Source: Desulfurivibrio sp. (GTDB lineage: Bacteria > Desulfobacterota > Desulfobulbia > Desulfobulbales > SURF-16). From it: a DNA stretch of 64,000 nucleotides. Below the pieces are notes generated by a model. That model worked only from the letters and a program-made list of their open reading frames with translations. It searched no databases and was not told the DNA's origin. The stretch is from contig QZKJ01000080.1 of NCBI GenBank assembly GCA_003605035.1, forward strand, positions 5,177 through 69,176, written 5' to 3'. Position numbers and translations under genes: made by a program. Positions 10,897 through 59,536 of the stretch are shown here, one piece after another; position 1 is the stretch's first letter, and each line of letters starts with the position of its first letter.

Positions 10897-10902
10897 AGGA
10901 TT

Positions 10903-12063: not shown

Positions 12064-12065
12064 GG

Positions 12066-31559: not shown

Positions 31560-31574
31560 CGCCGGTAAATCAGG

Positions 31575-33683: not shown

Positions 33684-33809
33684 AGGAAAAAAGTTTCAGG
33701 TTTGCCGGTTAAAATGGTAAGGTTTTCGGAAGTGTTGTGTAAACATTTCTTATTATTAAAATTATATTTCGAAAAATGAAAGCGGAAAAATGGATATTTT
33801 GGAGTGAAC

Positions 33810-36089: not shown

Positions 36090-36202
36090 AATAATATCGC
36101 CGTCCGGTTATCAGAGACGGCATAAGGAGCCGTAACGAAATGCTCAAAATGAAGAGGATATTTCGTAACGGCTCCTAAGTAAACGGGGGGCAGGGTATTT
36201 TC

Positions 36203-37003
36203 ATGCAGAGCGCTGCTGACGTCCGCACCGCCACCACTGAGATCAGCCGGCAGCTGATGGGCAATGTGGCCATTGTCCTGGTCGGCCCCAGGCATCCGGA
36301 AAACATCGGCGCCGCCGCCCGCATTGCCGCCAATATGGGCATCAGGCAGCTGCTGCTCGTCGGCGCTGCGCCCCCTGATCAGGAAAGGATGAGCAAGACC
36401 GCCACCCACCATAACCGCGGGCTTCTTGATGCGCTGCAGATCCATGCTGATCTCGGCCAGGCCCTGGTCCCCTTCAGCTGGGTGGTGGGCACCAGCGCCC
36501 GCCAGGGGCGGCAGCGGCGGCTCCTTACCAGCCCGCGGCGCCTGGTGGCCGATCTGCTGCCGAAACTTGCCGAAAACCGGGTAGCCCTGCTCTTTGGTCC
36601 GGAAGACCGCGGACTGACCAATGAGCAGCTCAAATTCTGTAATGCCGTGGCCTGTATTCCCACCGCGGATTTCGCCTCCATCAATCTGGCCCAGGCCGTG
36701 GCCATCCTCTCCTATGAGCTGTACACCGGGGTGCTGCAGTCTCACAGTGAGAACGGCAGCAGAACCTGTGCAAAACTGGCGCAGTCCGGCGAGCTGGAAG
36801 GCATGTATGAGCAGATTGCCCTGACCCTGCGGCAAATGAATTTTTTGAAAGAAATGGACTACGGCTACTGGCTGCATAATATCCGTAATTTTCTCGGCCG
36901 CATTGGTCTGCGTTCCCGGGAAGTAAAGTTTATCAGGGGATTTTGCCGGCAGGTGATCAGCCTGGCGGCAGAAAAAGATGGACAGCGCGGAAAACAGGGA
37001 TAA
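36203..37003 (+). CDS. trmJ: SpoU/TrmH-family RNA 2'-O-methyltransferase (TrmJ-like)
   Basis: IVLVGPRHPENIGAAARIAANMG, LLFGPEDRGLTNE, IPT, and SINLAQAVAI. Confidence 0.78.
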   Translation: MQSAADVRTATTEISRQLMGNVAIVLVGPRHPENIGAAARIAANMGIRQLLLVGAAPPDQERMSKTATHHNRGLLDALQIHADLGQALVPFSWVVGTSARQGRQRRLLTSPRRLVADLLPKLAENRVALLFGPEDRGLTNEQLKFCNAVACIPTADFASINLAQAVAILSYELYTGVLQSHSENGSRTCAKLAQSGELEGMYEQIALTLRQMNFLKEMDYGYWLHNIRNFLGRIGLRSREVKFIRGFCRQVISLAAEKDGQRGKQG

Positions 37004-37574
37004 GGAGCGCAGTGGCTTGCGCCGCCGCATCCTGGCGGCCAGGGAGAATCTTGCCCCGGACCTGCGGGCCGAGAAAAGCAGGTTGATTCGGGAAAACGTG
37101 CTGCAGATTGACCGGGTCAGACAGGCAGAACTGGTCATGCTCTATGTGAATTTCAGAAGCGAGGTGGAAACCTTTGCCCTGTTTGCCGCCTTGCACCGGC
37201 GGAATATCCTGACCTGCGCCCCCTTGACCCTGGCCAGCGACCATCGCCTGGCAAGCTTCCTGATTACTGACCCGGCCTCGCAGCTGCGGCCCGGCTATTG
37301 CCGGATTCCGGAGCCTGATCCCGACCGGACCGCCCCGGTTGCCCCGGCCGCCATCGAGGTTGTGCTGCTGCCCGGAGCAGTCTTTGATCTGCAGGGCGGC
37401 CGCCTGGGCTACGGCGGCGGCTATTATGACCGCTTTCTGGCCCAGGCAGCTCCCCAGGCCCTGCGTGTCGGGCTGGCTTATGCAATGCAAGTTGTTGACA
37501 GGGTGCCGGTTCTGGAGCATGATGTAAAACTGCATTATCTGGTAACGGAAAAGGGGATCAGAAAAATAGGATAA
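36978..37574 (+). CDS. 5-formyltetrahydrofolate cyclo-ligase
   Basis: LRRRILAARENL, VLLPGAVFDLQGGRLGYGGGYYDRFL. Overlaps the trmJ-like gene by 26 nt. Confidence 0.87.
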   Translation: MDSAENRDKERSGLRRRILAARENLAPDLRAEKSRLIRENVLQIDRVRQAELVMLYVNFRSEVETFALFAALHRRNILTCAPLTLASDHRLASFLITDPASQLRPGYCRIPEPDPDRTAPVAPAAIEVVLLPGAVFDLQGGRLGYGGGYYDRFLAQAAPQALRVGLAYAMQVVDRVPVLEHDVKLHYLVTEKGIRKIG

Positions 37575-37577
37575 GCC

Positions 37578-38621
37578 ATGAGAAAGACCGCTGTACTGCT
37601 GGATAATCTGTTTCTCGAGCATGATCCGGGCCACGGTCATGTTGAGTCGCCGGAGCGGCTGCGGGTGATCTATGAAGAGCTGACCAAACCGGCTATCCGG
37701 GAAAATCTGCTTTTCCCGCCTCTGAAACCGGCCGGTCATGAGGTGCTGCGGCTCATTCATACGGAGGCCCATATCGCCAGGGTGGCGGCTACCAGCGGCA
37801 AGCGCTTTGATCTGCTGGATGCCGATACCACCACCTCGCCCCGTTCGTATGAGGCCGCCTGTCTGGCTGCCGGGGCATTGGTGGAAGGGGCCAGGCTGCT
37901 GGCCGCCGGGGGAATTGATAACTGTTTCGCCCTGGTACGGCCGCCGGGGCACCATGCGGAGAGCACCCACGGCAAGGGTTTCTGCCTCTTTAACAATGTG
38001 GCCATTGCCGCCGCCTATGCCATCAGCGAGCTGCAGGTAAACAAGGTGCTGATCATCGACTGGGACCTGCATCACGGCAACGGCACCCAGCACAGCTTCT
38101 ATGATACTGATCAGGTGCTCTATTTTTCCACCCACCAGTACCCTTTTTACCCAGGGACCGGCGCGGCCCTGGAGAATGGCGAGGGCGCGGGCCTGGGGTA
38201 CACCATCAATGTGCCGCTGCCCGGCGGCCAGGGGGATGAGGCCTTTGCCCGGATTTTCAATTCCCTGCTGGTGCCGGTCGCCAGGCAGTATCAGCCGGAA
38301 ATGATCATGGTTTCCGCGGGCTTTGATATTTATAAGGGTGATCCGCTGGGGTCCATGCAGGTCACGGCCGACGGCTTTGCCTATCTGACCCGTCTGCTGG
38401 TTGAACTGGCGGCTGAACTCTGCGGGGGACGGCTGCTGCTGACCCTGGAGGGCGGCTATAACGTGGCCGGCCAGCGTGACGGGGTGCTGGCCGTGCTTGA
38501 CGAACTCACCGGCCGGAAATTTCTGTCTGACGAGACGTATGCCCGCCTGAGTCGCTCCGCTGTTGCGGTGCCGGGCCTTGACACTGCACAAAAAATTGCA
38601 AAAAACTATTGGAAACTGTAA
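37578..38621 (+). CDS. Histone deacetylase-family amidohydrolase (AcuC/Hda-like)
   Basis: RPPGHHAE, GFCLFNNVA, IIDWDLHHGNGTQ, SAGFD, and LEGGYN. Confidence 0.9.
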   Translation: MRKTAVLLDNLFLEHDPGHGHVESPERLRVIYEELTKPAIRENLLFPPLKPAGHEVLRLIHTEAHIARVAATSGKRFDLLDADTTTSPRSYEAACLAAGALVEGARLLAAGGIDNCFALVRPPGHHAESTHGKGFCLFNNVAIAAAYAISELQVNKVLIIDWDLHHGNGTQHSFYDTDQVLYFSTHQYPFYPGTGAALENGEGAGLGYTINVPLPGGQGDEAFARIFNSLLVPVARQYQPEMIMVSAGFDIYKGDPLGSMQVTADGFAYLTRLLVELAAELCGGRLLLTLEGGYNVAGQRDGVLAVLDELTGRKFLSDETYARLSRSAVAVPGLDTAQKIAKNYWKL

Positions 38622-38667
38622 AGTGGCCAGCTTAAGGGAATTTCCCTCGGCGCTGTTTTACTAAAAA

Positions 38668-39768
38668 ATGCATAAAGGTTGCTCTGTGCCATCAATCCGT
38701 CCGCATAATTCTTCCCTGCCGCAAAGCAAGATTCTGCTTGCTGATGACGATTCGCTGGTTCGTGATGCGGTGGTGAAGATTCTCGAGCTGTTCGGTCATC
38801 AGGTTATCGCCGTTGATGACGGCCGGGCGGCCTTGAACCTGGTCAGCGATGATATTGATACCATCATCCTGGACATCAACATGCCCGGCATGAACGGCTT
38901 TGAAACCATCAAGGCCCTGAATGAGAAGAAATCCGATATCCCCGTCCTGTTTCTGACCGGGGCCGGGTCCATGGAATTTGCGGTCAAGGCCATCAATCTC
39001 GGCGCCTATGATTTTATCTCCAAACCGATCGAGGATCTTGATCTCTTTGATGTCAAGATCCGGCGGGCCATCGAGAAGAAGATGTTTCTCCGGCGGGAAA
39101 AGACCTACAAGGAGAATCTGGAAAAAGAGGTCAGGAAAAAAACCAGGGAGCTGGCGGAAAAGAATCTGCTTCTGGAAAAATACAGCCATCATCTCGAAGT
39201 CTCTACCGTTAATACCATCATCACCTTGAACACCGCCCTGGAGGAGAAGGACCAGTATACCGCCGGCCATACCAAGCGGGTGACCGAGTACTCCAAGATC
39301 ATCGGCCTGGCCATGGGCCTGCCCCGGGAGGATCTCGATGTGCTGACCAGGGCCTGCCAGCTGCATGATATCGGCAAGCTGGTCATTGATGTGAGCTGCA
39401 TCCAGAAACCGGGGCCCTTGAGCGACGAGGAATGGATCCTGGTGAAAAAGCATCCGGAAATCGGCGAAAATATCATCAAACCCCTGAACTTTCTCGAACG
39501 TGAGGGGGAGATTGTCCGCCACCATCATGAACGGCTGGATGGCCGAGGCTATCCTGACGGCCTGGTGGGCGATGAAATCAACCTGTTGACCAAAATCGTC
39601 ACCGTGGCCGACAGTTTCGATGCCATGACCTCCAAGCGCAGCTACAAGATCAACATGAGCAAGCCCGAGGCGGTGGCCGAGCTGAGGGCCCACAGCAACA
39701 CCCAGTTCGACCCCCTGGTGGTCGAAAGTTTTGCCGCCATTCTCAGCGGAAGCGGTGCGGGCGGCTGA
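38668..39768 (+). CDS. Response regulator with HD-GYP domain (predicted c-di-GMP phosphodiesterase, RpfG-like)
   Basis: Receiver ILLADDDSLV..ILDINMPGMNGFE. HD-GYP block GHTKRV, LHDIGKL, HHERLDGRGYPDGL. Confidence 0.9.
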   Translation: MHKGCSVPSIRPHNSSLPQSKILLADDDSLVRDAVVKILELFGHQVIAVDDGRAALNLVSDDIDTIILDINMPGMNGFETIKALNEKKSDIPVLFLTGAGSMEFAVKAINLGAYDFISKPIEDLDLFDVKIRRAIEKKMFLRREKTYKENLEKEVRKKTRELAEKNLLLEKYSHHLEVSTVNTIITLNTALEEKDQYTAGHTKRVTEYSKIIGLAMGLPREDLDVLTRACQLHDIGKLVIDVSCIQKPGPLSDEEWILVKKHPEIGENIIKPLNFLEREGEIVRHHHERLDGRGYPDGLVGDEINLLTKIVTVADSFDAMTSKRSYKINMSKPEAVAELRAHSNTQFDPLVVESFAAILSGSGAGG

Positions 39769-46706: not shown

Positions 46707-47246
46707 ATGAAAAGAGAAAAGACAAAGATCGTACTGACCGGCTACCGGGCCTGCGGCAAAACTTCGGTAGGCCGGCTGTTAGCCGGCCGGCTATCCTTTT
46801 CTTTCGTTGATACTGATCGGGAAATCGAAGAACAGCAGGGGATGAGCATCAGCCAGATGGTGGCGGAGCATGGCTGGAGTTATTTCCGCGCCGCGGAGCA
46901 GGATTTCCTCTCGTCGCTGCTGACCCGGGCAAACCTGGTGGTCGCCCCGGGCGGCGGGGCCATTCTGCACCGGGCGGTGTGGGTGCAATTGATGGAAACC
47001 TCCCTGATCATCTGGCTGCAGGCTGATGTGGAAACCATCAGCAGCCGACTGACCCGGGACAACCTGTCAGGCAGCCAACGTCCTTCACTTACCGGCCAAG
47101 ATATGATAAAAGAGATAACGGCGGTGCTGGCGGAAAGGGAACCGCTCTACCGGCAGGGGTCCCATCATGCCCTCAGCGCGCACCGGCCGGTAGCGGAAAT
47201 TGTCGAGGAGATTCTGGCGCTGTGGGCGGCATGCCGTACAAACTGA
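46707..47246 (+). CDS. aroK: Shikimate kinase
   Basis: VLTGYRACGKTSVGRLLA, FVDTD, and APGGGA. Confidence 0.88.
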   Translation: MKREKTKIVLTGYRACGKTSVGRLLAGRLSFSFVDTDREIEEQQGMSISQMVAEHGWSYFRAAEQDFLSSLLTRANLVVAPGGGAILHRAVWVQLMETSLIIWLQADVETISSRLTRDNLSGSQRPSLTGQDMIKEITAVLAEREPLYRQGSHHALSAHRPVAEIVEEILALWAACRTN

Positions 47247-47311
47247 CAAGATGATGAAAAGATGTGTAATTGATAAAATGAATTTCCGGAAGGTCCGGAT
47301 GAGGAGAAATT

Positions 47312-48397
47312 ATGGCAGGAAACACATTTGGCCAGGTATTCCGGGTTACCACCTGGGGCGAATCCCACGGAACCGCTATCGGAGCGACGATTGACGGCTG
47401 TCCGCCCGGCATTCCGCTGACAACGGAGCATATCCAGGCTGATCTGGACCGGCGGCGTCCCGGGACGGGCGGGGCGACCAGCCCGCGCAAGGAGCCGGAC
47501 CGGGTTGAGATCCTGTCCGGGATCTTTGAGGGCTGCACCACCGGCACCCCGCTGACCCTGATTATTTATAACCAGGACGCCCACAGCAAATCCTATGACC
47601 ACCTGAAGGATATCTTCCGGCCCGGGCATGGCGATTACTCCTATCTGATGAAATACGGCATCCGCGACCATCGTGGCGGCGGCCGGGCCTCGGCCAGGGA
47701 GACGGCGGCCAGGGTTGCCGCCGGCGCCGTGGCCAGGAGACTGCTGTCCTTCCACGATATCGAGGTGTTTGCCTACACTCTTTCCCTGGGCGGCATTGAT
47801 GCGGTCAAGCTCGATTTCGATGCCCTGTGGCAGAATCGCCTCTTCTGTCCTGATAACGAGGCGGCCGCGCGCATGGAGGAAAGAATCGCGGAGGTGAAAA
47901 AGGAAGGGGATTCCCTGGGGGGGATTGTCGGCATCACCGCCAACGGCTGTCCGCCCGGTCTTGGCGAGCCGGTGTTCAACAAGCTTGATGCCGATCTGGC
48001 CGGGGCCCTGATGTCCATCGGCGCGGTGAAGGGGGTGGAGATCGGCTCCGGTTTTGCGGCGGCGCGGCTGACCGGTTCCCAGAACAACGACGCCCTGACG
48101 CCCGGGGGGTTCAGCTCCAACAATGCCGGCGGCATCCTGGCCGGCATCTCAAACGGAGAACCGATCATCGCCCGGGTGGCGGTGAAACCGATTCCATCCA
48201 TCGCCAAGTCCCAGAACACGGTGAATCTCGATAACGAGCCGGTGGAAATCAAGATCGGCGGACGGCACGACATCTCCGCCATCCCCCGCATCATCCCGGT
48301 GTGCGAGGCCATGGTCTGCCTGACCCTGGCGGATCACCTGCTGCGGCTGCAGACCCTTGAATGGACCCCTGAATCACTGGAGATGGACGAGATATGA
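47312..48397 (+). CDS. aroC: Chorismate synthase
   Basis: [45 protein letters not shown], and GGRHD. Confidence 0.95.
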
Positions 48398-49995
48398 GCA
48401 TGGAAAAGCAGAGGAAGATAGAAGATATCTGGATGATCACCCGGGAGTATGACGGTCTGGCCGGCGCCGGCGGAGTTAAGGACGTCTGCCGCCAGCTTGC
48501 CGAGGCCTTGGTCAAAAAAGCTGACGTCACCGTCATGCTGCCCATGTACGGCTTCATCGATGCCGAAACGCTTGGTTTTGCCCCGCGCTATGCATTTGAG
48601 GTGGACATCAACTATGTCGGGGTGGAGCGGCGGGAAGAGGTCCATATCTGGGAGCGCAAGCACAAGGCGGGCAAAAAGAGCCTGACCATCTATCTGGTTG
48701 ATGCGGCCCGCTACCGCGAGAAAAAAGCGGTATACACCTATACGGCGGCGGAGGAAGCGGAAAATCCGGTGCATGTCAGCGGCAGCGGTCATTATGATTA
48801 TTTCGCCATGAATGTCCTGCTGCAGAAAACGGCGCTCAATCTCATGCTCTACCGGGGCAAGCGGCCCGACATCATCCACTGTCAGGACGGGCACGCCGCC
48901 CTGCTGCCGGTCATGGCCAGGGAAATTGACGGCATTCGCCATTTCTTCAGAAAGACCGGCATGGTGGTCACCATTCATAACGCCGGGGTCGGTTATCATC
49001 AGGAGGTGGATGATCTGCCGTTTGCCAAGGCCGTTACCCGCCTGCCATCCATCATCATCGGCAAAAATCAGCTCGACGGCCGCTTTGATCCGTTTCTAGC
49101 CTCAGCTCCCTATGTGGTCATGAATACGGTCAGTGACAATTATGCCCGGGAATTGCGGGAAACCGAGGATGATGAACTGACGGGCTGGCTGGGCCATGCC
49201 TTGGCGAGCCGGGGGGTAATGCTGCAGGGGGTTACCAATGGCATCAATCCCGAGGACTTTAATCCTGAGGATGCGGAAAAGCAGGGCATTGCCGCGCCCT
49301 TTTCGCCGGCAAAAGGGGACCTGGCCGGCAAAAGGGAATGCCGCCGACAACTGGTGGAGATAATTGGCAGCCAGCAACTGACCTCTGTCCGGGTCAGCGG
49401 CTCCTTGACAGAAGCGCCTGAGCTGCCGCTTTTTACCCTGATCGGCCGGCTGACTGCCCAGAAGGGGGTGGACAAGCTGGCGGAGGCCCTGAAAACCCTG
49501 CTTGGCGAAGATGACGGCTTTCAGGTGCTGATCCTCGGCACCGGCACCAAAGAGATTGAAAGCGAGCTCATCGAGCTGACGGAGATCGGCGGGAACCAGG
49601 GCAGGATCTGCATCCTCTCCGGCTACGACCAGCAGCTGGCCAACAAGGTTTATGCTGCCGGGGATTTTTTTCTGATCCCCTCCAGGTACGAACCCTGCGG
49701 ACTGACCGACTATATTGCCCAGCTCTTCGGCAATCTGCCCATTGTCCATCATGTCGGCGGACTGGTCAAGGTGGTGGACGGCAAAACCGGTTTTGCCTAC
49801 CATGAGCACAGCACCGCCGCCCTCAGCGAGGCCATGCAGCGGGCCCTGCGGATGTTCCGTGAGCAGCCGGAGCAGATCAGGGCCATGCAGCGGGAAAGTA
49901 TAAATGTTATCCATAATTCCTACACCTGGGATAAAATTGTGCTACGATATATGCAGCTTTATCAGGAGGCGCTGACACTGTGCCGAGAGCCGTGA
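48394..49995 (+). CDS. GT5 glycogen/starch-synthase-like glycosyltransferase
   Basis: N-terminal [22 protein letters not shown], and C-terminal [31 protein letters not shown], which is GlgA-like. 533 aa. ATGA overlap with the aroC stop. No other glg genes lie nearby. Confidence 0.82.
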
Positions 49996-50816
49996 TTGAC
50001 CGGGAAAGCCTGGACGGACAGCAGCACAACAGATGGTTTGCCGGCCGGCGCGATTTTTTCGTCACCAGCATGCTGAAGGGCTTTTACCGGACTGCCAGCG
50101 GGTTTCTGCAGATTTACCAGGACTATCTCAAAACCGGCAGCGTGCCCTATGATGAGATCGACAAACTGGTCGGCACCGAGAACAGAAAAGGCTGCCTGTG
50201 GCGTTTAAAAGATGACTGTCATCAGCTGTGGCGCCATGGTGATGCCGCCTTTGAGCTCAATGGTTCCCTGCTTGACTGGATTGTCGGTTCGCTTTTTCAT
50301 GAGGCGATGAAGCTCAAGGAAAACATCTATCTCTTTGAGTTCTACGCGCCGCTGGCCCATGACAGGAAGGGAGTCTGGCGCCAGGAAATCCAGCATTTCT
50401 GCGGGGGGGAATGCCGGCGTTTCATGGAGAGGATTTCCCATGAGGTGGACCGGCAGATGGAGAACCTGGGATTCATGTTCGGCAGGGCAATTTATCTGCT
50501 GCGCACCATGCTGCCCACGCAGGCGCATAATCCCCTGCTGCTCAGGTATCTCATCGAACACCGCGACGTGGTCGGCGAGCTCTGGTCCGAGTCGCTGGAT
50601 GACATCTTCAAAGACATGTTCCACGGCGTCCCTGAAAGCGGCTATTGCCTTGCCGCGCAAAGCTATTTTGATGGGAACTGGTATGAAAAATCACTGGACG
50701 CCTGTCAGGAGGCCCTGCGCCTCAATGCGCACTGTGACGAGGCCATGCAGCGGCGGGGCCAGCTGGAGGCGCTGCTGAGAAAGACGAAAGAAAATCATCA
50801 GGGTAATTTCCGATAA
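49980..50816 (+). CDS. Hypothetical protein (no recognisable family)
   Basis: 278-aa ORF with coding-like composition. It overlaps the 3' end of the preceding gene (GTG starts at 49980 or 49992). I recognise no motif. The C-terminus looks TPR-like and helical. Confidence 0.55.
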   Translation: MPRAVIDRESLDGQQHNRWFAGRRDFFVTSMLKGFYRTASGFLQIYQDYLKTGSVPYDEIDKLVGTENRKGCLWRLKDDCHQLWRHGDAAFELNGSLLDWIVGSLFHEAMKLKENIYLFEFYAPLAHDRKGVWRQEIQHFCGGECRRFMERISHEVDRQMENLGFMFGRAIYLLRTMLPTQAHNPLLLRYLIEHRDVVGELWSESLDDIFKDMFHGVPESGYCLAAQSYFDGNWYEKSLDACQEALRLNAHCDEAMQRRGQLEALLRKTKENHQGNFR

Positions 50817-50847
50817 ACGCAGTTACTGTAATAATTGAGGAGGCGGC

Positions 50848-51852
50848 ATGACGGTAAGAATCGGCATTAACGGATTTGGCAGGATCGGCAGAAACGTGTT
50901 CAGGGCTCTGGGCAAGGATGAGGCATTCAAGGATATCGAGGTGATGGCCATCAATGATCTCACCAACCACGAGACCCTGGCCCATCTGCTCAAGTATGAC
51001 TCGATCATGGGCGTTTACGACAAGGGTGTCCATGTCTCGAGCAGAGGTCTGACGGTTGACGGCAAGGAGGTGATCATTAGCACCCACAGGAATCCGGCCG
51101 ATATCCCCTGGGGCGATATGGGGGTTGACTATGTGGTGGAATCAACCGGGCTTTTCACCAACAGCGAGAAGGCCGGCGCCCATATGGACGGCGGGGCCAG
51201 GAAGGTGGTCATCTCCGCCCCGGCCAAGGGGGATGTCAAAACCATTGTCATGGGCGTCAACGAGCATGAGTATGACCCCAGCCTGCACCATATTGTTTCC
51301 AATGCCTCCTGCACCACCAATTGTCTCGCCCCTTTTGCCAAGATTATCATGGACCGGTTCGGCATCAGCAAAGGGCTGATGACCACCGTGCATTCCTATA
51401 CCAATGATCAGCGTATTCTCGATTTCCCCCACAATGATCTGCGCCGGGCCCGGGCTGCGGCCCTGTCGATGATCCCTACCAAAACCGGCGCCGCCGCCGC
51501 CGTCTCCCTGGTCATCCCGGAACTGAAAGGCAAATTCGACGGTCTGGCGGTGCGGGTGCCCACCCCCAATGTCTCGCTGGTGGATGCGGTGATGGAGGTG
51601 GAGAAGGAGACCACGATTTCCGAGGTCAATCAGGCCCTGAAGGAAGGCAGCAACCGTTTCCTGGGTTATTCCGAGGAACCGCTGGTTTCCATCGATTACC
51701 AGGGCAATCCCCATTCCTCGGTGGTTGACGCCCTCTCCACCAAGGTCATCGGCAATATGGTCAAGGTGCTCAGCTGGTACGATAATGAATGGGGCTATTC
51801 CAACCGGGTGCTTGATCTGATCCTGCTCATGGAAAGCCAGAAGGCTTTGTAG
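50848..51852 (+). CDS. gap: Type I glyceraldehyde-3-phosphate dehydrogenase
   Basis: INGFGRIGRNV, the active site SNASCTTNCLAP, and WYDNEWGYS. SD gaggagg upstream. Confidence 0.96.
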   Translation: MTVRIGINGFGRIGRNVFRALGKDEAFKDIEVMAINDLTNHETLAHLLKYDSIMGVYDKGVHVSSRGLTVDGKEVIISTHRNPADIPWGDMGVDYVVESTGLFTNSEKAGAHMDGGARKVVISAPAKGDVKTIVMGVNEHEYDPSLHHIVSNASCTTNCLAPFAKIIMDRFGISKGLMTTVHSYTNDQRILDFPHNDLRRARAAALSMIPTKTGAAAAVSLVIPELKGKFDGLAVRVPTPNVSLVDAVMEVEKETTISEVNQALKEGSNRFLGYSEEPLVSIDYQGNPHSSVVDALSTKVIGNMVKVLSWYDNEWGYSNRVLDLILLMESQKAL

Positions 51853-52007
51853 CTGGCTAAAGTTGCTCTTTTCTGGTAATTTCCGCGACTGACCCTGCGG
51901 GGCTGCTGCCAATGGTGCGCCATCGGCCCCGGATTACGCAACAGTGGGCCCTGCGCACCAGCCTGCCCTGCTGTGGATTTTTAATTCTCAATGCCGATTT
52001 TGCCTCT

Positions 52008-55000
52008 ATGAGCCAGACCGAAAAAAGCTTTTATGAGACCTCCAGCGCCTTAAAGGCCAATCTCCTGGAAACAGCGGTCACCGATGTCTCCATCGATCCG
52101 GCCAAGCTGGCCTTTCTTGATCTGATCAAAGAGTTCAAGGGCATTCACAACAACCTGTATGACCTGCTGTACGAGATCCATCACCCCTATCGCAACTGGA
52201 ATCTCATTATCCCCAAGCTGCGCACCTTTGTCCTGAAAAATGTCGCGCTTTTCTGCCGCAGCAGCAAGGGGCCCGAAGCGTTTGCCATGTTCTGCGAAAT
52301 TTTCCTGCAGGCCGTCGAGGAAACGAAAAAAAACAGGACCCTGCTCAATCTCAGCATAGAGTCCATGCTGGCCTATGTGGAACGGCTCATCAGCTCGGCC
52401 AGGGCGGATCTGCCCCAGTATGAGGCCGTGCTGTCGCAGCTGTTTGACCGTCTCTACACGCTGGACAAGCAGATCATCATGCTGGTGGTGCAGGGCCATC
52501 ATCCCATGAAGAAGATTCTCCTTTTTCTGGTGGACACCCGGGAAAAGGAGCAGATCGCCTTTAATCTGCAGCCTGCCGCCCGCCTGATGAAAAAGATCCT
52601 CCTGCTCAACTATGGCTACTGGCTGGAGGTGGAGGACCCGCTGCCCTGGTTTCTGGCCCAGTGCAGCGACATGTGCAACAACTGGGATGCCGGCAAGCTG
52701 TTCAACGCCATTTCCCATGATCAGATCAGGAAGCATCTGGAGCAGCTGCAGGAGATCGAGGTCAGCAACGAACAGCGCGATCTGCGGGCCATTCTGGAGC
52801 TGCCCTCCCATATGGATCTGGTGCGGCTGTACCGGGAGATCCCGGAAAGACTGGCTGTGCAGTATGAAAAGGGGGCCAGGGCGGAAGACGACCGCTTCGC
52901 GGAAAACCGGAAACTGATTTTTCTCTTCCGCATCATGCGCACCTCCGGCCTCTATCTCATCCACGAGGAGAGTCTGCGCGAGATAAACCGCAGCCTGATT
53001 GTGCTCATCCGCCAGCAGACCTTTGAGGAGATCGAGTCTTTTCTGCTCACCACCCTGCAGCTGCTCAAGGAAAACGTCCGCCGTTACCCCCATACCGCCC
53101 TGCAGTGCATCCAGGTGCTCGGCACCGAGGTGTTCAACCGGGAAAACAGCCGGCTGGTGGAAACCTTTCTGTGGGAAACGGTTCGCTTCGGCTTTCAGTA
53201 TGCCAATGTCACCGGAGTGGACCAGGACTGGCAGCCGATCACCAATCCGGCCCATCTGGCCAACATCCGCGTCTGGCTGAACCTGATCATGCAGGAGCCG
53301 AAGTGGTGCTCCACCCTCTTTTCCGCCCTGATCATCAACCTCAAGCTCTCCGGCACCTGCGTCAAGGATACGGATCTGTTCCAGCGGGACATCAGCCGGC
53401 TGCTCAACCATCCGGTGGCCCCGGTGTACAACCTGGTCAAGCAGTTCACCAAGCTCATGCCGGTTTTCTTCAATGAGATCGGGGCGGAAGGCAACCTGCG
53501 GGATGTGTCCACCGAGCTTGACGAGATCCATAAGCGCAAGGATCTGCTCATTCACTTTCTGCGCAAGCAGAGTCATGTGGAAAGCTCCAATCTCATTGTC
53601 GACTTCATCAAGGCCATCCTGCGCTTCTGGCTGACCAAAGATAAACAGGTGCTCAGGGATTTTCTGCCGGATGAGGTGCTCAGCCAGGTGCAGACCAGCG
53701 GGCCCTTTGTCGATGAGCAGCATATCCTCACCAGCCGGCTGAAGGCGGTGGACCAGTATGAGAAGGAAAGCGACCTGCTCAAATGGGAGGAGGGCAAGAT
53801 AGCCGCCTTCCTGGCCGCCCAGCAGGATATCAGCCCCCATGAGGTGCGGCGCTTCGAGCTGCTGGTGCAGATGTACCGGCTGCTCGATCTCAAGTACAAC
53901 CTCGGTTTTCAGGAGTTGCGCCGTCAGCTGGAACAGGCGGCCGGCGGCGGGTTCCCGGAAATGGAGCAGCTGCTTGCCGACCTGGAGATCTGCGATACGG
54001 TCCAGTGTCTCACCGCCCTGCTGGATCATCTTGAGCAGCTGAAAGGAATCATTCTGAGCAGCGCGATTTTCGAGGCCAAGGAGGACATCTATTACAAACG
54101 GCATATTGCCGTGGATATCCCCTCGGTGTACGGCCGTTACAGCGAAAGAAAGTTTGACGCCCTGGGGCTCACCTTCAGGCTGGAAAATCTGGCCAATATC
54201 TATCTGGAGCGGCTGCCTTCCTCCCTCAATCTCTCCTTTATCACCCGGGCGACCTTTATCCGCATTATCAAATATCTGCGGCTGTACCTGCGGGCCCTGA
54301 AAATTGACGGCATCACCAGCCGCCGCCTGGAAACCTATGTGGCTCTGCTTTCCAATTCGCTGGGAATCAAGCGCTTTTCCTACACCCAGTACATTGATAT
54401 CTTCCGCGGCCTGTCCGAAGGGGTGAAGGACGTTATCTATGCCTATTACACCAATATTCATCAGAACAACCTCTCCATCATCATTCCCCAGATCGGGGCG
54501 GGCAACCTGCTGGCCAAATACCGCAACCTGTGGGAAGAAGATGAAAGCGATACCAACGGCCGCTGCCTGAAGGAGTCGATCCACCGGCTGTCCGAGGCCT
54601 TCATGCGGGATCTCATTTCCAGCACCTTCGGGCTGCAGCATCTGGATAATTTCATCACCAGGATTTATCAGGTGCTGGAGCGGCAGCGGGAGCTGCTGGA
54701 TGAAAAACAGCTGGATCTGCTGATGACCTACAACCCGGACAAGGCCATCCATGAGTTTGACCGCAAAAGCGCCCATGCCAAGAATCTCATTCTGCTCGGC
54801 AACAAGGGATTCAATCTCAGTCTGCTGGCCTCGGACAACAAGCCGGTGCCGCCGGGCTTTATCATCACTACGGAAATCTTCCGCTGCTGGTCGGTGGTCA
54901 ACAGCTTTTACATGGCCCGCAATGAGTTCATGAAGCAGATCCGCCACGCCCTGAACAAGATCGAGGAAAAGACCGGCACCCGCTACGGCGACCCGGATAA

Positions 55001-56276
55001 TCCCCTGCTGGTCTCCATCCGCAGCGGGGCCTCCATTTCCATGCCCGGCATGATGGCCACCATTCATAATGTCGGCTTAAACAATGAGATCGTCGAGGCG
55101 GTGGCCGAGGTGCCGGGCAAGGAGTATCTGGCCTGGGACAATTATCGCCGCTTTCTCCAGTCCTGGGGCATGACCATGGGGGTGGCCCGGGACATCTTCC
55201 AGGCCCTGATGAATGAGGCCAAGGCCAAGCACGGCGTCAGGGTGAAAAGTCAGTTCAGCCCGGCCCAGATGAAGGAGCTGGCGCTCAGCTATCAGAAGAA
55301 GATCCGCAACCTGGGCATCGGCATCCCGGATGACCCGTGGCTGCAGCTGATCGGGGCCATCGAAATGGTGCTGGCCTCCTGGGATGCGCCGAAAACCAAG
55401 GGCTACCGGGGCCTGATGGGCATTTCCCATGCATGGGGCACGGCTGCCATTGTGCAGGCCATGGTTTTCGGCAACCTCGGACCGGAAAGCGGCAGCGGCG
55501 TGGTCTTTACCGCCCATCCCTACCGCAAGGTGCGGCGGGTGGCCCTCTGGGGTGATTACGCCCCGGGCGACCAGGGCGAGGATATTGTCAGCGGCCTGGT
55601 CACCACCTTCCCCATTTCCGTCGAACAGGCGGAGATTGACGGTCGACCGGAGGATTTCACCCTGGAGCGGAGATCGCCCGAGGTGTATCAGGAGCTGCTC
55701 TCCATTGCCCGTAATCTGGTGTATGAAAAGGAGTGGAACCCCCAGGAAATCGAATTCACCTTTGAGGGTCCCCGGGCCTCGGATCTCTATATCCTGCAGA
55801 CCAGGGACATGATCACCATCAAGAAGAAAGAGCGCTTTTACGTCTTCCGCAACGAGGAGGAACTTGGTGAGTATATCCTCGGCAAAGGCGTCGGGGTGAG
55901 CGGCAGCGCTCTTGCCGGACTCGCCGTTTTTAACGAAAAAAATATCCGTGAGCTGCGCGAGAAGCAGCCCGATATGCCACTTATCCTCATCCGCCAGGAC
56001 ACCGTGCCGGAGGATGTCAAGGAAATCGCCATGGCGGACGGCCTGCTGACCTCCCGCGGCGGCCAGACCTCCCATGCCTCGGTGGTGGCTCTGCGGCTGG
56101 AGAAGACCTGCGTCGTCGGCTGCCATGCCCTGCAGGTGTATGAGGCCGAGGAGCGCTGCGTTATCGGCGGCAGGGTCATCCGGCTGGGCGATCCGGTGGC
56201 GATAGACGGCCGCAAGGGGCTGTTTCTCCATGGCCTGCATGAGGTGAAGGTAGAGGTGCATATTCTGCCAATTTGA
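52008..56276 (+). CDS. Large (~1,422 aa) dikinase-like protein: unknown ~920-aa N-terminal region, PPDK-type ATP-grasp nucleotide-binding domain, phosphohistidine swivel domain, and no PEP/pyruvate TIM-barrel domain
   Basis: C-terminal 500 aa: LLGNKGFNLSLL..PVPPGFIITTE, NPLLVSIRSGASISMPGMMATIHNVGLN, DNYRRFLQSWG, GTAAIVQAMVFGN, GDQGEDIVSG, EIEFTFE..LYILQTRDM, then LTSRGGQTSHASVVA (His codon at 56073-56075). The ORF ends about 66 aa after that His. The start is set to ATG 52008 (MSQTEK). Confidence 0.85.
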   Translation: MSQTEKSFYETSSALKANLLETAVTDVSIDPAKLAFLDLIKEFKGIHNNLYDLLYEIHHPYRNWNLIIPKLRTFVLKNVALFCRSSKGPEAFAMFCEIFLQAVEETKKNRTLLNLSIESMLAYVERLISSARADLPQYEAVLSQLFDRLYTLDKQIIMLVVQGHHPMKKILLFLVDTREKEQIAFNLQPAARLMKKILLLNYGYWLEVEDPLPWFLAQCSDMCNNWDAGKLFNAISHDQIRKHLEQLQEIEVSNEQRDLRAILELPSHMDLVRLYREIPERLAVQYEKGARAEDDRFAENRKLIFLFRIMRTSGLYLIHEESLREINRSLIVLIRQQTFEEIESFLLTTLQLLKENVRRYPHTALQCIQVLGTEVFNRENSRLVETFLWETVRFGFQYANVTGVDQDWQPITNPAHLANIRVWLNLIMQEPKWCSTLFSALIINLKLSGTCVKDTDLFQRDISRLLNHPVAPVYNLVKQFTKLMPVFFNEIGAEGNLRDVSTELDEIHKRKDLLIHFLRKQSHVESSNLIVDFIKAILRFWLTKDKQVLRDFLPDEVLSQVQTSGPFVDEQHILTSRLKAVDQYEKESDLLKWEEGKIAAFLAAQQDISPHEVRRFELLVQMYRLLDLKYNLGFQELRRQLEQAAGGGFPEMEQLLADLEICDTVQCLTALLDHLEQLKGIILSSAIFEAKEDIYYKRHIAVDIPSVYGRYSERKFDALGLTFRLENLANIYLERLPSSLNLSFITRATFIRIIKYLRLYLRALKIDGITSRRLETYVALLSNSLGIKRFSYTQYIDIFRGLSEGVKDVIYAYYTNIHQNNLSIIIPQIGAGNLLAKYRNLWEEDESDTNGRCLKESIHRLSEAFMRDLISSTFGLQHLDNFITRIYQVLERQRELLDEKQLDLLMTYNPDKAIHEFDRKSAHAKNLILLGNKGFNLSLLASDNKPVPPGFIITTEIFRCWSVVNSFYMARNEFMKQIRHALNKIEEKTGTRYGDPDNPLLVSIRSGASISMPGMMATIHNVGLNNEIVEAVAEVPGKEYLAWDNYRRFLQSWGMTMGVARDIFQALMNEAKAKHGVRVKSQFSPAQMKELALSYQKKIRNLGIGIPDDPWLQLIGAIEMVLASWDAPKTKGYRGLMGISHAWGTAAIVQAMVFGNLGPESGSGVVFTAHPYRKVRRVALWGDYAPGDQGEDIVSGLVTTFPISVEQAEIDGRPEDFTLERRSPEVYQELLSIARNLVYEKEWNPQEIEFTFEGPRASDLYILQTRDMITIKKKERFYVFRNEEELGEYILGKGVGVSGSALAGLAVFNEKNIRELREKQPDMPLILIRQDTVPEDVKEIAMADGLLTSRGGQTSHASVVALRLEKTCVVGCHALQVYEAEERCVIGGRVIRLGDPVAIDGRKGLFLHGLHEVKVEVHILPI

Positions 56277-56301
56277 TGAGTGGCTACAGGAGTAGTGATC
56301 A

Positions 56302-58239
56302 ATGGCTAAGGTCAGGGTGGAGTTGGAAAAAGAGCGCGGGGTGGAAAAAGCCCGGAAGGGCAGGGCTCCCTCGGAAAGAAGTAATGAAATTCCCAAACTG
56401 CTGATCAGGGAGGGGCTGCTGACCGAAGAGCAGCTGCATTACGCCCGGCGGGTGCACGCCAAGCTGACCTCCCAGCGCAGCCTGCTCAGCATCCTGGAGG
56501 AACTGCAGTATGTGAGCAAGGACCAGGTGCAGGATGCCCTGCGGTCCGGCCCGGTTTCGGTGCCCCTCGGCTCCCTGCTGGTTGAGCTGGGCTATATCAG
56601 CGACGCGGATCTGAGCATGGTGCTCGACAGCCAGCAGGAGCACCCCAACGCCAAGTTCGGCCAGCTGGTGGTCGACCTCAATCTCATTGATGAAAACGAT
56701 CTGCTGCGGGTGCTTTCCTACCAGCTCGGCTTTCCCTATATTGATCCTGCCGTGGCGGAGGTCGATCCCAAGGTGATCGAGCGGGGCAAGGTGGAGATCT
56801 ATGCCGAGCACAGGTTTCTGCCGCTGCATTATCAGAAGGACGGCATCCTGGTCGCCTTTGCCGATCCGCTCAACAACGAGCAGGTGCTGGCCGCCAGGAA
56901 AATCTTCGGCGATGCCCTGGTGATCGGCATTGCCCGGGAAAAGGCCATTCTCGAGGCCCTGAACAGGTACGAGGCCAAGGGACGCAAGGCGGATAAAGGC
57001 GGCAAGCGGGCCGAGGCCAGCGACAGCGCGGTGGTCACGGCGGTCAACGATATGCTGCTTGCGGCCTGTAAGCAGAATGCCAGCGATGTGCATATCGAAC
57101 CCCTGCGCGACAGGTTGCAGGTCCGTTTCCGCAGGGACGGTGTGCTGATCCCCTTCAAGGATTACCCGCTGGATATGGCGCCCGGCCTGGCCAGCCGCAT
57201 CAAGATCATGGCCGGCGCGGATATCGCCGAACGCCGGCGGCACCAGGACGGCCGCATCTTTTTTGAGGAGGGCGGGGTGCAGATTGACCTGCGCGCCTCC
57301 ATCTACGTGACCATCCACGGGGAAAAGATCGTCCTGCGCCTGCTCGGCAGACAGGGGGAACTGCGGGCCATCAACGAACTCGGCCTTGCGCCCCGCATCC
57401 TGCAGCGCTTCGAGGAGGAGGCCCTGGAGGCGCCCAGCGGCGTCATCATCATCACCGGCCCCACCGGCTCCGGCAAGACCAGCACCCTCTACAGCGCGGT
57501 CAATCATCTCAACAGCCCGAGCTGCAGCATCATCACCGCCGAAGATCCGGTGGAGTTTGTCATTGACGGCATTGCCCAGTGTTCCATCAACCCGAAAATC
57601 AATGTAACCTTTGAAGAAACCCTCAAACATATCGTGCGCCAGGACCCGGATGTCATTGTCATCGGCGAGATCCGCGACCGCTTTTCCGCGGAAATGGCCA
57701 TCGAGGCGGCCCTGACCGGGCACAAGGTGCTGACCACCTTTCACACCGAGGACAGCACCGGCGCCCTGCTGCGGCTGCTCGACATGCAGATCGAGGCCTT
57801 TCTCATCGCCTCAACCATTGCCGGCATCCTGGCCCAGCGGCTGGTGCGACGCATCTGCAAGGATTGCCCGGAGGAGCATCCGCTGACCCCTGATGAACTG
57901 CGCCGGCTGGGCTATGGCCTGAAGGACGGCGGCGGGCTGACCTTCAAGAAGGGGCGCGGCTGCCGCAAATGCCGCTATACCGGTTACAGGGGCCGGCTGG
58001 CTGTCCATGAACTGCTTATCCCGGGAGAAATGGTCAAGGATGCGGTGATTGCCCGCAAAACCGCCCATGAAATCAGAAAAATCAATATCCAGACCACCGG
58101 TCTGGTAACCCTGCTGGAAGACGGCATCTGCAAGGCAAGCCAGGGGATCACCAGTTTCAATGAGGTCATCCGCCAGCTGCCCAGGCTGGACAGGCCGCGG
58201 CCTCTTGTCGAAGTGAAGCGCTTGCTGGGGGTGCACTGA
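56302..58239 (+). CDS. GspE/PilB/MshE-family secretion/pilus ATPase with N-terminal T2SSE_N (MshEN-like) domain
   Basis: Walker A GPTGSGKTSTLYS, Asp box IITAEDPVEF, Walker B DPDVIVIGEIRD, His box TGHKVLTTFHT, and the tetracysteine CKDC...CRKC. The N-terminus carries two tandem 24-aa MshEN-like motifs (residues 88-111 and 118-141). Confidence 0.92.
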   Translation: MAKVRVELEKERGVEKARKGRAPSERSNEIPKLLIREGLLTEEQLHYARRVHAKLTSQRSLLSILEELQYVSKDQVQDALRSGPVSVPLGSLLVELGYISDADLSMVLDSQQEHPNAKFGQLVVDLNLIDENDLLRVLSYQLGFPYIDPAVAEVDPKVIERGKVEIYAEHRFLPLHYQKDGILVAFADPLNNEQVLAARKIFGDALVIGIAREKAILEALNRYEAKGRKADKGGKRAEASDSAVVTAVNDMLLAACKQNASDVHIEPLRDRLQVRFRRDGVLIPFKDYPLDMAPGLASRIKIMAGADIAERRRHQDGRIFFEEGGVQIDLRASIYVTIHGEKIVLRLLGRQGELRAINELGLAPRILQRFEEEALEAPSGVIIITGPTGSGKTSTLYSAVNHLNSPSCSIITAEDPVEFVIDGIAQCSINPKINVTFEETLKHIVRQDPDVIVIGEIRDRFSAEMAIEAALTGHKVLTTFHTEDSTGALLRLLDMQIEAFLIASTIAGILAQRLVRRICKDCPEEHPLTPDELRRLGYGLKDGGGLTFKKGRGCRKCRYTGYRGRLAVHELLIPGEMVKDAVIARKTAHEIRKINIQTTGLVTLLEDGICKASQGITSFNEVIRQLPRLDRPRPLVEVKRLLGVH

Positions 58240-59084
58240 TGAAGAAGAGTCAGTCTCTTATCGAACAGATCAATGAATTTGTCCTGAAGGAAAATTTTCA
58301 GTTGCCGGTTTTTAACGATATTGCCATGCGCATCTTGAAAATGGCCCGCTATGAGGATTTTGACATTCGCGAGATGAGCAATCTGATCTATCAGGACCAG
58401 GTGCTGGTGGCGGAGGTGCTGAAGGCGGCCAATTCACCGTTTTTCGGGGGATTATCAGTCATCACCACGGTCAAGGACGCCATTATCCGTCTCGGCTCCC
58501 GCCAGGTCTGCGAGTTGGTGCTGATCGCCTCGGAGCGTATCCAGTACCGGGCCGCGGACAAGAAGCTGAACAAGCTGCTGGGCAAATTGTGGAAGCATTC
58601 GGTGGCCTGCGCCATCGGCTCTCAGTGGCTGGCCAGAAGGCTCAGCTATCATGAGAAGGACAATGAGGCCTTTATCGGCGGGCTGCTCCATGACATCGGC
58701 AAGCTCTTTTTGCTGCGGGTGATCGACACCATGCAGGAATCCCAGGAGGTGTCGTTTTCGATTTCCTATGAGCTCAGCTATGAGCTGATCAACTCCTTCC
58801 ATGCGGAAGAGGGCTACAAGCTGCTCAGCCAGTGGAATCTGCCGCCGATCTACTGTGAAATCGCCCGGGACCATTATATCCCGGGATTTGATCATGATAA
58901 TATTCCCCTGCTGCTGGTCAGGATCACCAATCAGGCCTGCGCGAAACTCGGCATCGGCATGAAACACGACCCCTCCATCGTGCTGATCAGCACTCCGGAG
59001 GCCGTGGCCCTGCGCGTCAAGGAGATCGTACTGGCCGAGCTTGAGGTGATGCTGGAGGACACCATGCAGATCGCCACCGGCTGA
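58239..59084 (+). CDS. HDOD-domain protein
   Basis: LPVFNDIAMRILKM, DQVLVAEVLKAANSPFFG, and GGLLHDIGKLFLL. The start overlaps the upstream stop (TGATG). Confidence 0.88.
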   Translation: MKKSQSLIEQINEFVLKENFQLPVFNDIAMRILKMARYEDFDIREMSNLIYQDQVLVAEVLKAANSPFFGGLSVITTVKDAIIRLGSRQVCELVLIASERIQYRAADKKLNKLLGKLWKHSVACAIGSQWLARRLSYHEKDNEAFIGGLLHDIGKLFLLRVIDTMQESQEVSFSISYELSYELINSFHAEEGYKLLSQWNLPPIYCEIARDHYIPGFDHDNIPLLLVRITNQACAKLGIGMKHDPSIVLISTPEAVALRVKEIVLAELEVMLEDTMQIATG

Positions 59085-59182
59085 GTTCTGCCGGCTACGC
59101 AACCTGTAAAACTGCGAAAGAAAAAGAGACTCTATAAGAATCATTTCTACCAGGCGATCCAGAGTGGATGAGGTCCAATATT

Positions 59183-59407
59183 ATGAAAGCTGAAGAATTT
59201 GATAAAAAATTTGAAGCAGGCGAGGATTTGAAAGACGATCTTGACTTTTCCAAAGCGCGCAGGGTCAACCAGGAAGCTAAACGAGTCAATATAGATTTTC
59301 CGGCCTGGGTAGTTGAAGGACTCGATAAGCAATCCAAGCGGCTGGGGATAACAAGACAGGCCCTCGTTAAAGTTTGGATCGCGGAAAAGCTCAAAGAGGC
59401 AGTTTAA
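59183..59407 (+). CDS. CopG/BrnA-like ribbon-helix-helix antitoxin homologue (orphan)
   Basis: MKAEEFDKKFEAGEDLKDDLDFSKARRVNQEAKRVNIDFPAWVVEGLDKQSKRLGITRQALVKVWIAEKL matches my recollection of the small CopG-type antitoxin family (DUF3680-like). No toxin-sized ORF is adjacent. Confidence 0.6.
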   Translation: MKAEEFDKKFEAGEDLKDDLDFSKARRVNQEAKRVNIDFPAWVVEGLDKQSKRLGITRQALVKVWIAEKLKEAV

Positions 59408-59536
59408 GAATTTTTATGCGACAAGGATAGCGGACGAAATTTACTGCGGATGACACTTGGGGAGCTGAGAAAAACAAGTTTCCTTTGAGGTCAACATGCT
59501 CCCTAATTGTGTGGGTTGAATGTTCTCTTCAAACCT

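Follow-up and report, generated by a model that had tools for sequence, protein, structure and literature searches.

A close described relative of the ATPase analysed here is MshE of Vibrio cholerae (5HTL; PMC5013675), which has an MshEN domain at its N-terminus, ahead of a core of the PilB/GspE type, and whose gene lies inside the mannose-sensitive haemagglutinin (MSHA) pilus operon. The published MshEN domain, whose fold is a four-helix bundle with an alpha/beta subdomain, has two 24-residue motifs joined by a 5-residue spacer, with a conserved glycine at position 10 of motif 2 (PMC5013675). PilF of Thermus thermophilus (6F8L, 8PDK), a pilus and competence motor, carries tandem MshEN/GSPII units before its core, three complete GSPII domains in all, some of which bind c-di-GMP (cyclic diguanosine monophosphate). 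In the PilB-PilZ-FimX system of Xanthomonas (7LKO), an MshEN-like N-domain docks a small regulator, PilZ, that is tied to c-di-GMP signalling. The locus under study belongs to a 64,000-nucleotide stretch of DNA from Desulfurivibrio sp., a member of the Desulfobulbales in the Thermodesulfobacteriota (contig QZKJ01000080.1, positions 5,177 to 69,176); this stretch is called the window hereafter, where a PilB/GspE-family ATPase gene is followed at once by the gene of an HDOD protein and preceded by a large dikinase-type gene. Comparison with related loci indicates that ATPase and HDOD make up an independent operon of two genes occurring across phyla, which in one subclade lies between the large gene and hemW.

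To our knowledge, HDOD is a widespread signalling domain without an established biochemical function, and we know of no function or partner of the stand-alone HDOD protein 3HC1 of Geobacter sulfurreducens. This protein shares its fold, and the presence of histidine and aspartate metal ligands, with the HDOD protein of the window; its pocket holds two iron ions by means of five histidines and one aspartate (PMC12075610). SadB of Pseudomonas (9QZK), a YbaK-HDOD protein in which most metal ligands are missing, is an example of an HDOD protein serving as a protein-protein adaptor; it is an adaptor of proteolysis for which the HDOD pocket is dispensable, and no binding of c-di-GMP was seen in a Biacore assay (PMC12075610). 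The domain was once proposed to be a dinucleotide phosphohydrolase (PMC2952852), and the literature search returned no paper demonstrating enzymatic activity of an HDOD domain. Unlike the HDOD protein described here, neither 3HC1 nor SadB is known to be linked to a T2SSE ATPase. Full-text literature searches found no paper connecting HDOD with MshEN, GspE or PilB proteins, in accordance with the impression of an earlier reading of the window, made from its letters and open reading frames (ORFs) and called the sequence-only reading below, that a locus of this composition had not been described. What is new here is a subfamily of PilB/GspE-family ATPases with a dedicated HDOD partner.

Conservation of the ATPase-HDOD pair

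The surroundings of the ATPase gene were analysed in 15 independent distant loci of the family (L081-084, L086, L088, L091-094, L170-173 and L175); the ATPase-HDOD pair is called the cassette hereafter. As controls, 75 ordinary PilB-like loci with 35-41% identity were taken from among the metagenome-scan matches listed for the ATPase alignment. An HDOD gene of ~280 aa adjoins the ATPase gene (MshEN and T2SSE, ~630-660 aa) in all 15 distant cassette loci and an HDOD gene is present in none of the 75 ordinary loci among the matches listed (Fisher's exact P = 2e-17). Seven distant ATPase contigs were looked up and each has an HDOD gene of 271-282 aa immediately downstream; their source labels are a 3.27-Mb contig, Vicinamibacterales (Acidobacteriota), Desulfobacterales, Myxococcota, an 'Acidimicrobiia' metagenome-assembled genome (MAG), Desulfobulbaceae and Magnetomoraceae, and the genes flanking the pair have nothing in common among the seven. 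The carriers of the cassette include Acidobacteriota, Myxococcota and other Thermodesulfobacteriota. The reverse search gave the same picture, since all three distant HDOD relatives followed up have an MshEN-T2SSE gene of 644-659 aa immediately upstream. The metagenome scan added at least five members of the ATPase family (48-56% identity), with an adjacent HDOD gene in all those listed, and 16 pairs of ATPase and HDOD matches with identical longest-contig size were counted.

The two genes are closely joined. The distance from the ATPase stop to the HDOD start ranges from -22 to +21 nt and the genes overlap in 7 of 11 cassette loci; the distant loci have an intergenic region of their own, of about 100-480 nt, upstream of the ATPase gene. 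The pairwise identities of the two proteins are correlated (r = 0.92 for 17 loci; r = 0.80 for the 13 distant loci), and in a Mantel test none of 2000 permutations reached the observed value. Clustering, with confirmation by Pfam, placed a T2SSF platform gene in 48 of the 75 ordinary loci among the matches listed as against 0 of 11 cassette loci (P = 5e-5), and no platform, pilin or secretin gene was found within 6-8 kb on either side in any cassette locus. No T2SSE-HDOD fusion protein is present among the best 120 HDOD relatives, and a tblastn search of 72,556 plasmids with the HDOD protein as query gave no match.

In one variant locus, L094, the two genes are divergent and still adjacent (Table 1). 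Its HDOD partner (471 aa) begins with a fused adenylate/guanylate cyclase domain of class III, a fusion which hints at a cyclic-nucleotide connection. In another cassette locus, L171, a PilT-sized T2SSE gene followed by the gene of a 509-aa protein matching MshEN only lies at 10725-12846 on the minus strand, opposite to that of the cassette and about 4 kb from it.

Synteny of the large gene

The sequence-only reading had suggested that all three proteins may belong to one non-pilus module, with the dikinase-like one as partner or substrate. Its observation of three co-oriented ORFs with a 25-nt gap and a 1-nt TGATG overlap is borne out by the sequence at the coordinates it gave (Table 1): the large gene stops with TGA at 56274-56276, the ATPase gene begins with ATG at 56302, and the ATPase stop TGA (58237-58239) shares its A with the HDOD start ATG (58239-58241) in the string cacTGATGaag. 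The association of the three genes was analysed in 80 GTDB species-representative loci with relatives of the N-terminal 923 aa of the large protein (64-92% identity). Neighbours were located by tblastn, and downstream genes were counted in the 46 loci with at least 2.8 kb of downstream sequence.

The ATPase and HDOD genes stand 3' of the large gene in 8 of these 46 Desulfobulbales species loci. All eight belong to the closest clade, in which the large protein is at least 81% identical, and a ninth trio-like locus (L009) is cut by the contig end inside its ATPase gene. In two other loci (L010 and L036) hemW/radC come immediately after the large gene. The genome MAG127, with a large protein of 80% identity, has the ATPase-HDOD pair some 13 kb off on the opposite strand, behind cold-shock, DEAD-helicase and RNA recognition motif (RRM) genes, and the cultured Desulfolithobacter dissulfuricans has the large gene with neither set of neighbours. 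Conversely, no dikinase gene (PPDK_N or PEP-utilizers) was found near any of the 15 distant cassette loci. What accompanies the large gene is its upstream side: gap lies on the same strand within 3.5 kb upstream in 52 of the 66 loci with enough upstream sequence, and glgA, aroC and aroK lie upstream in most loci.

The three-gene module is therefore not supported as a unit and is largely refuted by synteny. The comparison with the N-terminal region of the large protein had been set in advance as the refuting test, and the dikinase failed it. The link between the ATPase and HDOD genes, with their usual translational coupling, stands. The three-gene hypothesis is thereby corrected to a two-gene cassette.

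Table 1. Position and character of the features described (window coordinates, except the last two rows, which are those of locus L094)
Feature	Position	Strand	Description
Large-protein ORF	51912-56276	+	Longest ORF, 1454 aa
Large gene, probable extent	52008-56276	+	About 1422 aa; neighbour, outside the ATPase-HDOD module
Spacer between large gene and ATPase gene	56277-56301	+	25 nt; contains an AGGAG ribosome-binding site
ATPase gene (cassette gene 1)	56302-58239	+	ORF of 645 aa
Family-specific N-terminal unit of the ATPase	56377-56547	+	aa 26-82; AlphaFold helices and conserved motif
MshEN domain of the ATPase	56563-56982	+	aa 88-227; Pfam/NCBIfam and Foldseek
T2SSE core of the ATPase	57016-58173	+	aa 239-624; translation and invariant columns
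C-terminal tail LPRLxxPRPLxELxRLLG of the ATPase	58177-58236	+	aa 626-645; past the end of ordinary PilB/GspE
TGATG stop/start overlap of the ATPase and HDOD genes	58237-58241	+	Read from the sequence
HDOD gene (cassette gene 2)	58239-59084	+	ORF of 281 aa
BrnA-family antitoxin gene	59168-59407		117 bits against a cut-off of 60
HDOD gene of variant locus L094	610-2025	-	Divergent from the ATPase gene, still adjacent
ATPase gene of variant locus L094	2316-4271	+	Divergent from the HDOD gene, still adjacent

Anatomy of the ATPase

The ATPase matches T2SSE (PF00437) with 362 bits against a cut-off of 24.9, MshEN (PF05157) with 47 bits and NF053729 with 62 bits. It stays below the equivalog cut-offs of both PilB (TIGR02538, 461.8 against 675.65 bits) and GspE (TIGR02533, 455 against 630.25 bits). 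Its closest PDB sequences are Thermus PilF 6F8L (E 1.4e-120), Geobacter PilB 5TSG/5ZFR and Myxococcus PilB. Members of the subfamily are about 620-660 aa long and are 52-59% identical across phyla. The T2SSE core contains Walker A GPTGSGKT (aa 386-393), DPDVIVIGEIRD and GHKVLTTFHT, none of which varies within the family, and Walker A, Walker B (Asp box) and the His box are all intact. A tetra-cysteine CxxC...CxxC site (C519, C522, C554 and C557) is invariant in 12 family members. Such a tetra-cysteine zinc motif, situated in the C-terminal domain, is a mark of the assembly ATPases (PilB/GspE) as opposed to PilT.

Two additions set the subfamily apart. The first precedes the MshEN domain and consists of helices 26-36, 42-54, 61-67 and 73-82 (AlphaFold; predicted local distance difference test score, pLDDT, 89.6) with the conserved motif LTxEQLxYAxRVxxK; its four helices resemble the MshEN bundle and lack the glycine and glutamine ligand positions, and NF053729 matches the ATPase in two stretches. 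The other is the C-terminal tail, which is present in eight of nine cassette ATPases, as a variant in the ninth, and in none of 87 generic PilB-like ATPases; L626, P627, L629, R633, E637 and R640 are its invariant residues. Unlike MshE, the cassette ATPases thus carry a degenerate helical unit before MshEN and a unique tail, and where PilF has three complete GSPII domains they have one MshEN domain with a helical half-unit, and an HDOD partner. Their genes are never beside pilus genes and always beside HDOD, as opposed to the position of the MshE gene. The extra N-terminal helical unit, the tail (LPRL...PRPL...ELRRLLG) and the HDOD neighbour make the subfamily recognisable. The database names for the ATPase cluster are TadA, PilB, GspE and generic ATPase of type II secretion (T2SS), type IV pili (T4P) or type IV secretion (T4SS), and orphan PilB/GspE-like ATPases are routinely mis-named TadA, PilB or GspE.

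The c-di-GMP motif

The MshEN domain is laid out as a tandem pair of 24-residue motifs (aa 88-141) followed by an alpha/beta subdomain. The best Foldseek match of its model is MshE with c-di-GMP (5HTL; template modelling (TM) score 0.81, root-mean-square deviation 2.5 A). The motifs were compared with the relaxed pattern [RKPN]hGxxhhxx[GAS]hhxxxxhxxxhxx[Q...]. Motif 1 (aa 88-111) fits it, with Pro at position 1. Motif 2 (aa 118-141) departs from it at position 10 only, where the window ATPase has Asn and the family as a whole H, N, R or Q, with no case of G, A or S. Between the motifs, the spacer has 6 residues in the window ATPase compared with the published 5, and of the leading arginines of V. 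cholerae MshE, Arg9 is replaced by Pro88 and the motif-2 arginine by Lys118; the longer spacer, the missing glycine and a leading Pro or Lys, often in place of Arg, distinguish the cassette family from MshE. The ligand-contacting hydrophobic, glycine and glutamine positions, most of which V. cholerae MshE shares, are mostly near-invariant across 39 family members.

Binding of a dinucleotide by this domain is plausible from the motif pair, and it is not callable from the sequence because of the deviations at motif-2 position 10, in the spacer and at the leading arginines. The c-di-GMP control that had been suggested for the locus is plausible: the MshEN fold is present in the model, and the motif departs from the published form.

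Anatomy of the HDOD protein

The HDOD partner is a stand-alone protein that matches PF08668 with 158.2 bits against a cut-off of 22.9. The cassette HDOD subfamily has a length of about 271-303 aa and an identity of 42-50% across lineages. Among PDB entries its relatives are 3HC1 (the best, E 3.7e-21), 3M1T and 9QZK. Residues H120, H151, D152, H188, D211 and H212 are invariant in 13 cassette HDOD proteins and align with histidine and aspartate positions of 3HC1. Judged by this alignment, the HDOD partners retain the putative di-metal ligand set. The window protein has DHY where most cassette partners have DHH. HDOD and generic HD models were the only ones matched at E <= 0.01, and there was no match to the HD-GYP-type model PF13487.

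HDOD domains had been called catalytically silent in the sequence-only reading. That label is premature, because the cassette proteins keep invariant 3HC1-like ligands, and it is too simple, yet it agrees with the lack of any retrieved paper showing HDOD activity.

Proposed mechanism and alternative readings

The region is best read as the meeting of two unrelated units, namely a metabolic cluster that ends with the large gene and the ATPase-HDOD operon; we give this reading a probability of about 0.6. The opposite reading, a single non-pilus module with all three proteins as components and the dikinase as partner or substrate, has in its favour the co-orientation of the genes, the 25-nt gap, the lack of a terminator-like site between the first two genes and of a promoter-like site near the ATPase start, and an order kept in nine close loci (L001-L007, L009 up to its contig end, and L011). 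It is nevertheless very improbable, as 38 of 46 related species loci have no ATPase and HDOD genes after the large gene, MAG127 separates the large gene from the pair in both distance and strand, the 15 distant cassettes have no PPDK_N or PEP-utilizers gene nearby, and the conserved partners of the large gene are the upstream gap and glgA. A chance or hitch-hiking adjacency of ATPase and HDOD without functional meaning is less credible still and close to negligible. Stand-alone HDOD proteins are common in these phyla, as are PilB-like ATPases, and the window itself carries a second HDOD protein, a 948-aa hybrid histidine kinase (HDOD-HisKA-HATPase_c-REC) at 1419-4265 on the minus strand; on the other side stand an adjacency of 15/15 against 0/75 ordinary loci among the matches listed, a link found in both search directions, stop and start codons that mostly overlap, neighbours that remain adjacent after the inversion in L094, and two distinct subfamilies that diverge together.

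For the ATPase-HDOD operon a mechanism can be put forward tentatively, at somewhat less than even odds, in which an HDOD-regulated ATPase complex would drive a filament machine encoded elsewhere. The ATPase and the HDOD protein would form a stoichiometric complex, with the metal-binding HDOD protein as sensor or regulator subunit of the hexameric ATPase, docked on the MshEN-type N-module or on the unique C-terminal tail. The MshEN motif pair may additionally bind c-di-GMP or a related dinucleotide, and the regulated hexamer would power a machine resembling a type IV filament, with the platform gene at some other place in the genome. The Xanthomonas PilB-PilZ-FimX system offers a parallel, and the ATPase N-domain model matches chain A of 7LKO with a TM score of 0.69-0.73 (Foldseek). 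The regulator is PilZ in that system and would be HDOD in the cassette, where its gene is translationally coupled to that of the ATPase and its binding is presumed.

Instead of moving a filament, the pair may constitute a soluble ATPase for signalling or remodelling that operates with no filament or secretion machine, a PilB-type hexamer taken into a new role, the HDOD protein being its adaptor or substrate selector. Consistent with this are the absence of platform, pilin and secretin genes within 6-8 kb of every cassette, the occurrence of the platform gene in 48 of the 75 generic loci among the matches listed and in none of 11 cassette loci, the scores under the curated PilB and GspE cut-offs and the family-specific N- and C-terminal additions. 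Precedents are SadB as a proteolysis adaptor (PMC12075610) and PilB of Myxococcus xanthus, which is reported to signal in the regulation of exopolysaccharide (EPS) (PMC5544727). Assembly-ATPase features including the tetra-cysteine site are strongly conserved, the closest structural relatives are bona fide pilus motors, and missing neighbours are weak evidence because pilus genes are often scattered in genomes; we regard the non-filament role as rather unlikely. The same low standing is given to its widest form, that the cassette would be a so far unrecognised, phylum-spanning signalling motor, independent of pilus and secretion, in which a PilB-derived hexamer has a metal-containing HDOD protein as its obligate partner; if it is true, HDOD gains a molecular partner defined for the first time and a biochemical role that can be tested. 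That the HDOD partner would be an enzyme, a metal-dependent phosphohydrolase of, for instance, c-di-GMP, pGpG or some other nucleotide, which sets the local ligand level for MshEN and makes the two a local signalling pair with no passive adaptor, is also unlikely. The invariant H120, H151-D152, H188 and D211-H212 of the 13 cassette proteins, their alignment with histidine and aspartate positions of 3HC1, a protein with a described di-iron site (PMC12075610), the cyclase-fused variant of L094 and the former phosphohydrolase proposal (PMC2952852) point towards such an enzyme. Against it stand the failure to find a paper showing HDOD enzyme activity, SadB, which functions without the pocket and bound no c-di-GMP in the Biacore assay (PMC12075610), the tyrosine in place of the second histidine in the window protein (DHY compared with DHH) and the lack of a match to PF13487.

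Several points weigh against the reading of two separate units with a physically joined ATPase-HDOD complex. The survey consists mostly of MAG and metagenome contigs, and the absence of platform genes applies to local neighbourhoods of 6-8 kb on either side, not to whole genomes. Correlated divergence is partly expected for any two genes that are vertically co-inherited, and adjacency with co-divergence also fits a shared pathway without physical contact. The 25-nt spacer and the stretch just before the ATPase start contain no terminator-like or promoter-like site; the short gap without a terminator-like site suggests transcriptional read-through from the large gene into the ATPase gene in the window clade, where the large gene may be co-expressed with the pair. 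With regard to c-di-GMP, the motif-2 turn glycine is never present, the spacer has 6 residues and both leading arginines are replaced.

The strictly conserved and translationally coupled ATPase-HDOD pair nevertheless provides a concrete, testable partner for both proteins. It hints at a new regulation of type IV filament motors or at a new use for them.

The large dikinase-type neighbour

The longest ORF of the large gene exists as the sequence-only reading had it, and its start was probably placed too far upstream. The gene most likely begins at the ATG at 52008 (M33), 96 nt inside the ORF, because the NCBI annotation of the same 82.5-kb contig gives 1422 aa, alignments with homologues start at about residue 33-44, and the AlphaFold model shows disorder over residues 1-44. 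Pfam places PPDK_N at aa 962-1238 and the PEP-utilizers mobile domain at aa 1357-1436; the first ~920 aa have no Pfam match. The family has 563 representatives at 50% clustering, mostly of 1350-1430 aa, with conservation of the PPDK-like ATP-grasp domain and of TSHAA, the phosphohistidine motif. The protein stays far below the cut-offs for pyruvate phosphate dikinase (TIGR01828, 372.7 against 843.45) and phosphoenolpyruvate synthase (NF005057, 69.5 against 598).

With pyruvate phosphate dikinase, phosphoenolpyruvate (PEP) synthase and rifampin phosphotransferase the large protein shares ATP-grasp and the swivelling phosphohistidine domain with the TSHAA histidine. Unlike those dikinases it lacks the PEP/pyruvate TIM barrel, PEP-utilizers_C having no Pfam match in it, and has instead an all-helical N-domain of ~900 aa. 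This domain gave a confident all-helical AlphaFold model (pLDDT 84.6), and its invariant polar residues are H448, D486, D488, E526, R530, D537, D544, R551, K552, H555, K729, R730 and H731. Foldseek of the N-domain against the PDB returned generic alpha-solenoid matches only, none below E 1e-3 and with TM of ~0.3 or less, so the search gave no functional lead for it. The acceptor of the ATP-grasp/phosphohistidine 'dikinase' would be bound by this novel helical domain.

The most fitting description of the protein is an enzyme of dikinase type with a linkage to gap and glgA in Desulfobulbales, and its gene is the last member of a central-metabolism cluster aroK-aroC-glgA-x-gap-X of that order. 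Within the window, the genes 5' of it are aroK, aroC, a glgA-like gene, a 278-aa ORF without assigned function and a type I glyceraldehyde-3-phosphate dehydrogenase gene (gap). This conserved cluster, aroK-aroC-glgA-like-(278 aa)-gap-large 'dikinase', extends over 46707-56276 on the plus strand and was followed in the loci L001-L080; aroC and glgA overlap by 4 nt, and glgA and the 278-aa ORF by 16 nt. The ~1420-aa 'PEP synthase' of Desulfobulbales is thereby flagged as an enzyme with an unassigned acceptor domain and a linkage to gap and glgA.

Other features of the window

The flanks agree with those described earlier: gap is upstream of the trio, and an orphan BrnA-family antitoxin gene follows the HDOD gene, then hemW and radC on the minus strand. 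No BrnT toxin gene accompanies the antitoxin in the window, and the antitoxin was rejected as a member of the unit, being missing from all related loci. The HDOD-hemW interval (59085-59536 in the window) varies among L001-L007 and L011; HDOD is directly followed by hemW in L005-L007 and L011, and 1.5-4.3 kb of other DNA intervenes in L002-L004. The earlier description of a PilB/GspE-family ATPase without pilus or secretion genes nearby was also correct, as the Pfam scan of the whole 64-kb window found no pilin, T2SSF platform, secretin or prepilin peptidase among its ~45 ORFs.

The Rfam scan of the window and nine cassette loci revealed no riboswitch, such as one for c-di-GMP, 5' of the ATPase gene and one tRNA only, and a regular-expression search of 13 loci found no shared sigma-54 or sigma-70 motif 5' of that gene. 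The public sequencing runs found to contain the sequence are DNA metagenomes only, with no RNA run among them. PADLOC defence models did not match the three proteins or two of their neighbours. An origin from a mobile element or defence island was rejected, there being no repeats, integrases or PADLOC matches, and the housekeeping contexts being unrelated.

Long antisense ORFs inside the large and ATPase genes, at 52050-55067, 55077-56396 and 56299-57744 on the minus strand (1005, 439 and 481 aa), are probably shadow ORFs of GC-rich coding sequence; comparable antisense ORFs of the control loci gave artefactual clusters. Genes of nucleotide signalling are grouped at 30786-39768, namely those of a Crp-type regulator that binds cyclic nucleoside monophosphates (30786-31559), of a RelA/SpoT homologue on the minus strand (31575-33683) and, at 38668-39768, of a response regulator with an HD-GYP-type HD_5 domain, which does match PF13487. 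At 6953-10069 on the plus strand, a 1038-aa fusion protein combines radical SAM, class I methyltransferase and DUF5714 domains.

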